Positions 1,969-2,124 of a stretch of 4,837 bases of DNA are shown piece after piece. Both the position numbers and the translations under genes were made by a program. This stretch comes from Escherichia phage CBA6, in the sequence record KM389299.1. One strand, 5' to 3'. The first letter of the stretch is position 1; each line of letters opens with the position of its first letter. The notes under the pieces are model-generated. The model made no database searches and was not told the DNA's origin. It saw only the letters and a list, made by a program, of their open reading frames with translations.

Positions 1969-2124
1969 TGTGGGGGTTTGCCCCCACAACGCAAATCGAA
2001 GTTCTTTGGGTATATCTTTTAACCCTCAAGGTCTGTACACAGATGTGGCCGTCCCATGAGTAAGTTAGGCGATATACAACATGTTGGGTCGAACCTGTTA
2101 AGCCCAGAGAACTTCGATTTGCGT
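1969..2124 (+). repeat. GC-clamp hairpin (1969-1988, G5/C5 stem, UUUG loop) followed by a 22-bp inverted repeat (1989-2010 pairs with 2103-2124) with one U-G wobble
   Basis: ACGCAAATCGAAGTTCTTTGGG pairs with CCCAGAGAACTTCGATTTGCGT; t2006-g2107 is a wobble. A nested helix TATATC/GATATA (2011-2016 with 2071-2076) suggests a multi-branched domain. Confidence 0.5.

Follow-up and report, generated by a model that had tools for sequence, protein, structure and literature searches.

A covarying RNA domain, D1, as a probable module of an unannotated array of structured RNAs in Escherichia phage CBA6

Analysis of 4,837 nucleotides of Escherichia phage CBA6 (KM389299.1; this whole stretch is the window below) indicated that positions 1989-2124 very probably form a maintained RNA domain of the + strand, which we call D1. 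As judged from related genomes, the domain is genuine, its pairs covary, and it had not been filed before; it is best regarded as a single module within a larger RNA array that lacks annotation. The features of the domain and of its 5' side are as follows.

1844-1988, + strand: swappable spacer module of small hairpins, the last one being the G5/C5 hairpin (fold z = -2.5)
1969-1988, + strand: G5/C5 clamp hairpin, UGUGGGGG-UUUG-CCCCCACA, an 8-bp stem closed by a UUUG loop, adjoining the helix P1 on its 5' side
1989-2124, + strand: D1, whole domain, the closing helix P1 and the 92 nt that it encloses
1989-2010, + strand: 5' arm of P1 (inverted-repeat search and covariation)
2103-2124, + strand: 3' arm of P1 (inverted-repeat search and covariation)
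2011-2016 / 2071-2076, + strand: nested helix P2, UAUAUC / GAUAUA, in the minimum-free-energy fold
2011-2076, + strand: long irregular arm of D1, P2 and the apical hairpin C2038-A-C / G-U-G2047
2078-2081 / 2096-2099 and 2083-2085 / 2092-2094, + strand: hairpin P5 (folding), with a G-rich loop at 2086-2091

P1 is a 22-nt inverted repeat with 21 Watson-Crick pairs and one wobble pair, U2006-G2107. The original prediction had described the 8-bp G5/C5 hairpin, this repeat with its single U-G and the nested TATATC/GATATA helix, and all of them were found where it had placed them. It had also proposed a discrete folded RNA domain, which both the folding energy and the covariation bear out. The fold of 1960-2135 reached -73.9 kcal/mol against -44.8 +/- 4.2 kcal/mol for dinucleotide shuffles (z = -7.0, none of 200 as good). 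The minus strand of the D1 region folded almost equally well (z = -7.1), so the folding energy alone picks no strand.

The evidence for D1 comes mainly from P1 in an alignment of 15 distinct versions of the domain from Kuttervirus, Taipeivirus and Agtrevirus loci, in which it was conserved and covarying across the three genera. In the 20 columns aligned in all sequences, 99% of 300 cells were paired, and compensatory double changes that kept the pairing occurred at 8 of the 20 pairs, a count drawn from three deep lineages and minor variants with few independent events among them. None of 500 shuffles matched the observed pairing and double changes, and when the 3' partner was slid by 1-3 columns the pairing fell to 18-50% with zero double changes. 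For example, in Agtrevirus AUCGAAG/CUUCGAU was swapped for AGUAGAG/CUCUACU, and in Taipeivirus UUCUUUGGG/CCCAGAGAA was swapped for UGCCUUGAC/GUCAGGGCA. The length of P1 was constant across the three classes (about 21-22 bp), its sequence not: Kuttervirus has a helix of 22 bp, Taipeivirus one of 20-21 bp, and Agtrevirus one of 21 bp with a C-A mismatch in addition.

The changes themselves point to the strand. Of the sequences, 8 have U-G at pair 2006:2107, 6 have C-G and 1 has U-A. P1 was read as + strand RNA because these changes would be A-C mismatches on the minus strand, and also because the neighbouring helices hold many G-U pairs; this is the strand of the tRNA genes. The strand specificity that had been claimed for the helix is upheld by this pair, the energy being neutral. 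Furthermore, a metagenome variant of P1 carried one further U-G pair.

Covariation of the interior helices was left uncounted and class-by-class folds were used, because the MAFFT alignment shifts P2, P3 and P5 by 1-2 columns between classes. Class-by-class folding gave a three-way Y topology in all three sequence classes, in which P1 leads into a long irregular arm and a short hairpin, and the long arm appeared in the minimum-free-energy or near-optimal folds of each of the three. The apical hairpin read UCUAC-AAA-GUGGA in Taipeivirus, UUCAC-AUG-GUGAA in Agtrevirus and CAC-AGAU-GUG in Kuttervirus, which are compensatory differences. The outer stem of P5 occurred as AACA/UGUU, AAUA/UGUU and AGCA/UGUU, and in Agtrevirus a different 5-bp hairpin with a GGGG loop stands at the same place. 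The loop of the short hairpin stayed G-rich (GGGUCG, GGGCCAC or GGGG) as its stem varied, and the length of D1 was 136, 128-129 or 122 nt by class. These comparisons lend moderate support to the maintenance of the interior helices of D1.

The G5/C5 hairpin is real, but it is a neighbour of the conserved domain and not part of it. Its stem was invariant wherever present and only the loop differed (UUUG, or UCAG in Agtrevirus); because the stem never varies, covariation says nothing about this hairpin. The 145-nt spacer at 1844-1988 was found in MK-13 and SKML-39, and in the five Kuttervirus loci without it and in all Taipeivirus an unrelated segment of about 45 nt with a different end hairpin takes its place. 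Of the unit as originally drawn, the 22-bp helix with its branched interior stands, but the hairpin falls outside the conserved unit because its spacer is swapped. The unit was also drawn too small: D1 lies within a block conserved across genera that covers 1989-2318 in BLAST comparisons and includes a second domain, D2, directly abutting P1. The suggestion that 1826-1850 and 2018-2045 are diverged duplicated modules did not hold up, since the best local alignment scored 17, which 75 of 2000 shuffles reached even before correction for the post-hoc choice of segments, and the self-comparison of 650-2790 gave a best direct match of 22 bits against a shuffle mean best of 21.6 (maximum 31). The features of D2 are as follows.

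2125-2317, + strand: D2, multi-helix domain of about 190-200 nt (RNAalifold)
2125-2132 / 2303-2310, + strand: D2 closing helix, extendable by 2118-2123 / 2312-2317
2277-2286, + strand: D2 hairpin GGG-GAAA-CCC with an invariant GAAA tetraloop

RNAalifold placed 55 pairs in D2, 15 of them with compensatory double changes. Agtrevirus SKML-39 retained D1 and has a 4-bp hairpin, GCAG-GUA-CUGC, in place of D2; gain and loss of peripheral domains is typical of RNA evolution.

The D1 element was present in 243 phage records at about 71-100% identity, and its position was identical in Kuttervirus, Taipeivirus and Agtrevirus. A D1 covariance model found one copy per locus in these three genera and one in a metagenome contig, and none in Limestonevirus, Miltonvirus, Felix O1-like and siphovirus loci, T4 or an E. 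coli prophage. In IMG/VR, an exact 20-mer of D2 was found in isolate genomes only (14 loci), plus one metagenome contig; because this search found few further loci, the diversity is limited to three deep lineages.

The window was 92-98% identical by megablast to Kuttervirus (Ackermannviridae, Cvivirinae) phages such as SS9, CBA120 and Sa157lw. A baseplate-wedge gene flanks the locus on one side and the tRNA cluster on the other, and the 3' end of a conserved 189-aa ORF lies in the window. The genes around D1-D2 are as follows.

501-647: 48-aa ORF, upstream neighbour of the ORF-free array
650-2790, + strand: ORF-free array of structured RNA modules, between the 48-aa ORF and the homing-endonuclease/tRNA cluster
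2774-3218: disrupted HNH homing-endonuclease gene in the tRNA cluster, with an in-frame stop at about 3035
3220-4831, + strand: five tRNA genes (gene prediction in the window with ARAGORN and Rfam)
3717-4148: intact PD-(D/E)XK endonuclease gene in the tRNA cluster (Pfam PF11645, E = 7e-26)

The array, the flanking ORFs and the tRNA genes all lie on the same strand, and between 650 and about 2790 there was no ORF longer than 80 aa. Among the neighbouring proteins we found no RNA-binding partner; Pfam gave the PD-(D/E)XK homing-type endonuclease alone. The array DNA was 74-98% identical, block by block, to the same position in Agtrevirus, Taipeivirus and other Kuttervirus loci. In GenBank these roughly 2 kb are currently left blank or annotated with contradictory small "hypothetical proteins", and our search of the transcriptome and non-coding RNA literature on CBA120, Kuttervirus and Ackermannviridae found nothing relevant.

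P1 is one of several long helices in this array. Within 650-2790, five helices reach 17 bp or more and three reach 20 bp or more, where mononucleotide shuffles gave 0.13 and 0.013. Sliding-window fold z-scores were uninformative here, the fixed windows cutting across long helices.

1225-1307, 1711-1843, 2351-2422, 2497-2590 and 2579-2591 / 2776-2788: other long covarying helices of 17-26 bp, closing variable domains

Those at 1225-1307, 1711-1843 and 2497-2590 are built like D1 (fold z = -6.3 to -7.4), show compensatory changes between genera in their arms, and keep 17-26 bp even when the enclosed segment is a loop of 4-10 nt. Array modules were gained or lost between relatives exactly at helix bases, and the 1711 helix begins precisely where the tRNA-like module at 1586-1711 ends in CCA.

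Some further observations concern the same DNA. Three Taipeivirus loci carry a full-length match to the prophage sRNA STnc100 (RF02076; L003 and L005 at 3498-3712, L006 at 3426-3639), with 49-53 bits against a gathering score of 47; the match sits between the equivalents of window positions 2457 and 2483, and the window itself is without it. The 35 nt at 2423-2457 were 97% identical in all Taipeivirus loci examined, amid variable surroundings. A second ORF-free stretch at 4136-4417 is purine-rich (AT skew up to 0.30), with a GGGUGU...ACACCC closing and many GNRA-like loops. It was conserved at 85-89% in every genus examined, Limestonevirus included, had no match in Rfam, and is probably another structured RNA.

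The array also holds sequences related to tmRNA and tRNA.

1305-1484: tmRNA-like messenger region (sequence comparison), with a tag frame at 1359-1394
1516-1581: mini tRNA-like domain directly 3' of the tag region (1665-1746 in the Salmonella phage Mushroom locus)
1586-1711, 1100-1171 and 4606-4746: further tRNA-like RNAs with acceptor-like stems and T arms, missed by ARAGORN

The tag region consists, in order, of AAAAAUAAUC, GCU AAU GAU AAC ACG UUC CUG GCA GUA GCU UAA UAG, and pseudoknot-like hairpins, and its frame codes for ANDNTFLAVA followed by two stops. The codons drift between relatives and the peptide is conserved: ANDDVVLMAA was found in MK-13, in phages C1 and Mulvp2 and in an E. 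coli O26 lambdoid prophage (between Q and holin), ANDSEVLMAA in PC3, ANDNAYLMVA in phiMAM1, ANDNVFLAVA in Felixounavirus Mushroom and ANEEMYLAVA in Klebsiella phage VLCpiS13d. ARAGORN called no tmRNA on the tag region, and the Rfam tmRNA matches to it were sub-threshold only. A 321-base stretch of Mushroom, made up of the tag region and the tRNA-like domain next to it, matched 741 phage records, and the best 40 of these matches were unannotated or lay under a "hypothetical protein" or HNH feature, never under tmRNA. Of 5,426 E. coli genomes, 144 matched the window's own tag region. PMC4392139 mentions a Felix O1 tmRNA, and a 2014 survey gave phage ssrA in mycobacteriophages and Bacillus phage G only.

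The mini tRNA-like domain comprises an acceptor stem, a GAAA hairpin of 7 bp and a T arm (GAAGG-UUCGAGU-CCUUC), and its C-CCA end is encoded. In the window copy G3-A70 stands in place of the G3-U70 required for alanine identity. This G3-U70 is present in the Felixounavirus copy, which the Rfam tmRNA model matches with E = 2e-5. Det7 is without this domain and without the next module. Expanded arms and a CCA-like end were found in 1586-1711 and 4606-4746 as well; the former was 97.8% identical in Serratia phage IME250, against flanks of about 80%. The RNA at 1100-1171 was Kuttervirus-specific, and one record labels it tRNA-Ala. In the Mushroom record (NC_041923) the tRNA features lie on the strand opposite to the ARAGORN and Rfam calls, which may be an annotation or display inconsistency.

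The explanation that we favour, with a little better than even confidence, is that D1 belongs to a processed, stable non-coding RNA in which P1 acts as a processing or insulating stem, most likely cut by RNase III of the host. D1 and D2 together (1989-2317, about 330 nt) would form a two-domain structured non-coding RNA of the + strand, and the array would most likely be co-transcribed with the downstream tRNA genes of the same strand as one precursor. Double-stranded RNA of about two turns is cut by E. coli RNase III, which shows little sequence specificity and matures rRNA and phage T7 transcripts at such stems. P1 and its siblings are proposed as processing stems because they are length-conserved helices in series and because of this known preference of RNase III. 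The two-turn P1, as well as the other 17-26-bp helices of the array, three or four in number, would be a double-stranded processing or insulating stem, and such stems would let each module fold independently. Host RNase III, the most likely enzyme, would cleave P1 and part the modules, and a stable RNA made of D1 or of D1-D2, with a short stem left at its ends, would be freed. In phages that have it, the G5/C5 hairpin may then shield the upstream fragment from exonucleases by capping its new 3' end. The RNase III step itself is held tentatively, at somewhat below even confidence. Several points speak against the explanation: the perfect P1 helix could equally be a structural arm, P1 has a C-A mismatch in Agtrevirus, no promoter or terminator was found to bracket D1, and the hairpin proposed as a 3' cap is absent from many relatives.

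A different reading makes D1-D2 a functional structured RNA, serving, for example, as decoy or scaffold to some factor of the host or the phage, as an anti-defence RNA, or as an assembly unit as in ROOL and GOLLD, with P1 as a rigid architectural arm. The multi-helix covarying domains speak for it, as do the invariant GAAA tetraloop and long invariant single-stranded stretches of D2, the conserved G-rich P5 loop of D1 and the position of D1-D2 beside phage tRNA genes, where GOLLD and ROOL have been reported in phages. However, Rfam 15 returned no family for 1969-2317, either at gathering scores or at E up to 10, the sole Rfam matches nearby being chance ones of microRNA models on the 2497-2590 hairpin. 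Neither domain is essential to the family, since Limestonevirus and Miltonvirus are without D1 and SKML-39 is without D2, and two-turn helices are hard to shield from RNase III in E. coli cells. We regard this reading as possible but unlikely. Much the same weight is given to its most far-reaching form, in which D1-D2 would be an undescribed, ornate class of phage RNA with an activity or binding of its own (as a ribozyme, an assembly unit or a decoy for host factors or defence), gated by a three-strand exchange between P1 and the D2 helix, within a 2.1-kb "RNA island" ahead of the Ackermannviridae tRNA genes.

Strand exchange could also be the main function, as a conformational switch that controls folding order, processing or partner access. 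Positions 2118-2123 (UUUGCG) have two possible partners, 1990-1995 at the base of P1 and 2312-2317 in the D2 closing helix. C2122 covaries with both sides: with G1991 it gave GC in 9 sequences, AU in 4 and a mismatch in 2, and with G2313 it gave CG in 9, UA in 7 and a mismatch in none, all of which reflects a single co-change event that separates Kuttervirus/Agtrevirus from Taipeivirus. The extended D2 closing helix reaches 18 bp with one mismatch in Agtrevirus and Taipeivirus, and the inverted-repeat search found the same three-strand layout elsewhere, 2579-2590 pairing with 2497-2508 or with 2777-2788. Yet the energies of the two states hardly differ, no ligand-binding or regulated element is evident, and the exchange may be a switch or mere branch migration at a coaxial junction. 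With one event behind the covariation, we consider a switch improbable.

An element acting at the level of DNA has less in its favour again, whether as a palindrome or cruciform used for protein binding, recombination or packaging or as a replication origin, or as a MITE-like mobile element whose terminal inverted repeats measure 22 bp. The inverted repeat is nearly perfect and its minus strand folds equally well, some depositors annotated the arm as a repeat_region, and module boundaries fall at the helix base, with CGCAAA at both ends of the 1989-2318 block. However, the changes at 2006:2107 and the G-U pairs of neighbouring helices, such as the six in 2351-2370 / 2403-2422, would be tolerated only in + strand RNA, and the interior and D2 helices covary too. 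Each locus had a single copy and no other was found in the loci searched, nor did D1-D2 match any of 5,426 E. coli genomes. The terminal-repeat idea was set aside, as the repeat_region of the depositors is merely the 21-bp P1 arm, and so was the MITE-like element, which is single-copy at each locus and whose arms accept G-U-type changes. A DNA-level role is hardly to be expected on this evidence.

That the very stable, GC-rich 8-bp G5/C5 stem with its tetraloop is an intrinsic terminator of an upstream RNA, with D1 starting a separate transcript, is very improbable: AACGCAAAUCG follows the stem with no U-tract, the hairpin was not listed in the terminator scan, no promoter-like site lies between it and D1, and many relatives keep D1 without the hairpin. 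Small proteins are the least credible reading. They are suggested by ORFs of 45-78 aa that overlap D1 and by the "hypothetical protein" features of several GenBank records. However, no ORF over D1 is conserved: the open frames of different lineages differ in extent and lie on different strands and in different frames, no frame survives the length differences of 7, 8 and 14 nt, and the annotations conflict between records, strand included.

The array belongs to a much-used group of phages. Ackermannviridae (Vi1, CBA120, Det7 and relatives) are widely isolated and serve as biocontrol and therapy phages. The analysis shows the array to be a string of evolutionarily maintained RNA structures, which corrects the annotation and defines testable RNA genes, namely D1, D2, the long-stem modules, the tRNA-like RNAs and the tmRNA-like tag region. 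If the modules act as decoys or regulators of the RNA machinery of the host, the takeover of enterobacterial translation and RNA processing by virulent phages would gain a new layer.

D1 fails membership in each known family that a model or a defining feature allows to be tested. Nearest in kind are RNase III stems of stable-RNA precursors, the stable RNAs of the T4 tRNA cluster and the large ornate phage-associated RNAs GOLLD and ROOL. A further known system to compare is tmRNA (ssrA, with phage copies such as the one reported in Felix O1), as the tmRNA-like tag region of the array lies about 600 nt upstream of D1. However, D1 itself is without any tmRNA feature, and phiMAM1 has the tag region and no D1, indicating that the two occur independently. 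GOLLD and ROOL resemble D1-D2 in being large, multi-domain and covarying RNAs of obscure function, in phages or prophages and beside tRNA genes. They differ in that their Rfam models do not match, and D1-D2 has only about 330 nt, belongs to phages of Enterobacteriaceae and offers no evidence of multimerisation.

The species 1 and species 2 RNAs of T4 (rnaC and rnaD) are small stable non-coding RNAs which, like the array, lie beside phage tRNA and homing-endonuclease genes, and rnaC, with its tRNA-like fold, T arm and expanded arms, resembles the window modules 1586-1711 and 4606-4746. D1, in contrast, carries neither an acceptor stem nor a T arm nor a CCA end, and its covariance model was silent in the T4 locus; ARAGORN and Rfam gave no match of 1969-2124 to the tRNA/tmRNA clan (CL00001) at E up to 10, and the P5 loop GGGUCG is not a T-loop. 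The Ackermannviridae array is also about ten times longer.

The RNase III stems of the E. coli rRNA operon (16S and 23S) and of the T7 early transcripts share no sequence homology with P1, and the array encloses domains of 40-190 nt where those stems enclose rRNA or mRNA. Like P1, they are duplexes of about two turns formed from sequences that flank a folded RNA, and they likewise lie, several in series, inside a long polycistronic transcript that is non-coding or contains tRNAs, such as the proposed array transcript would be. The duplex of about 20 bp or more from flanking sequences that marks such stems was formed by P1 in all three sequence classes, and cleavage there is putative.
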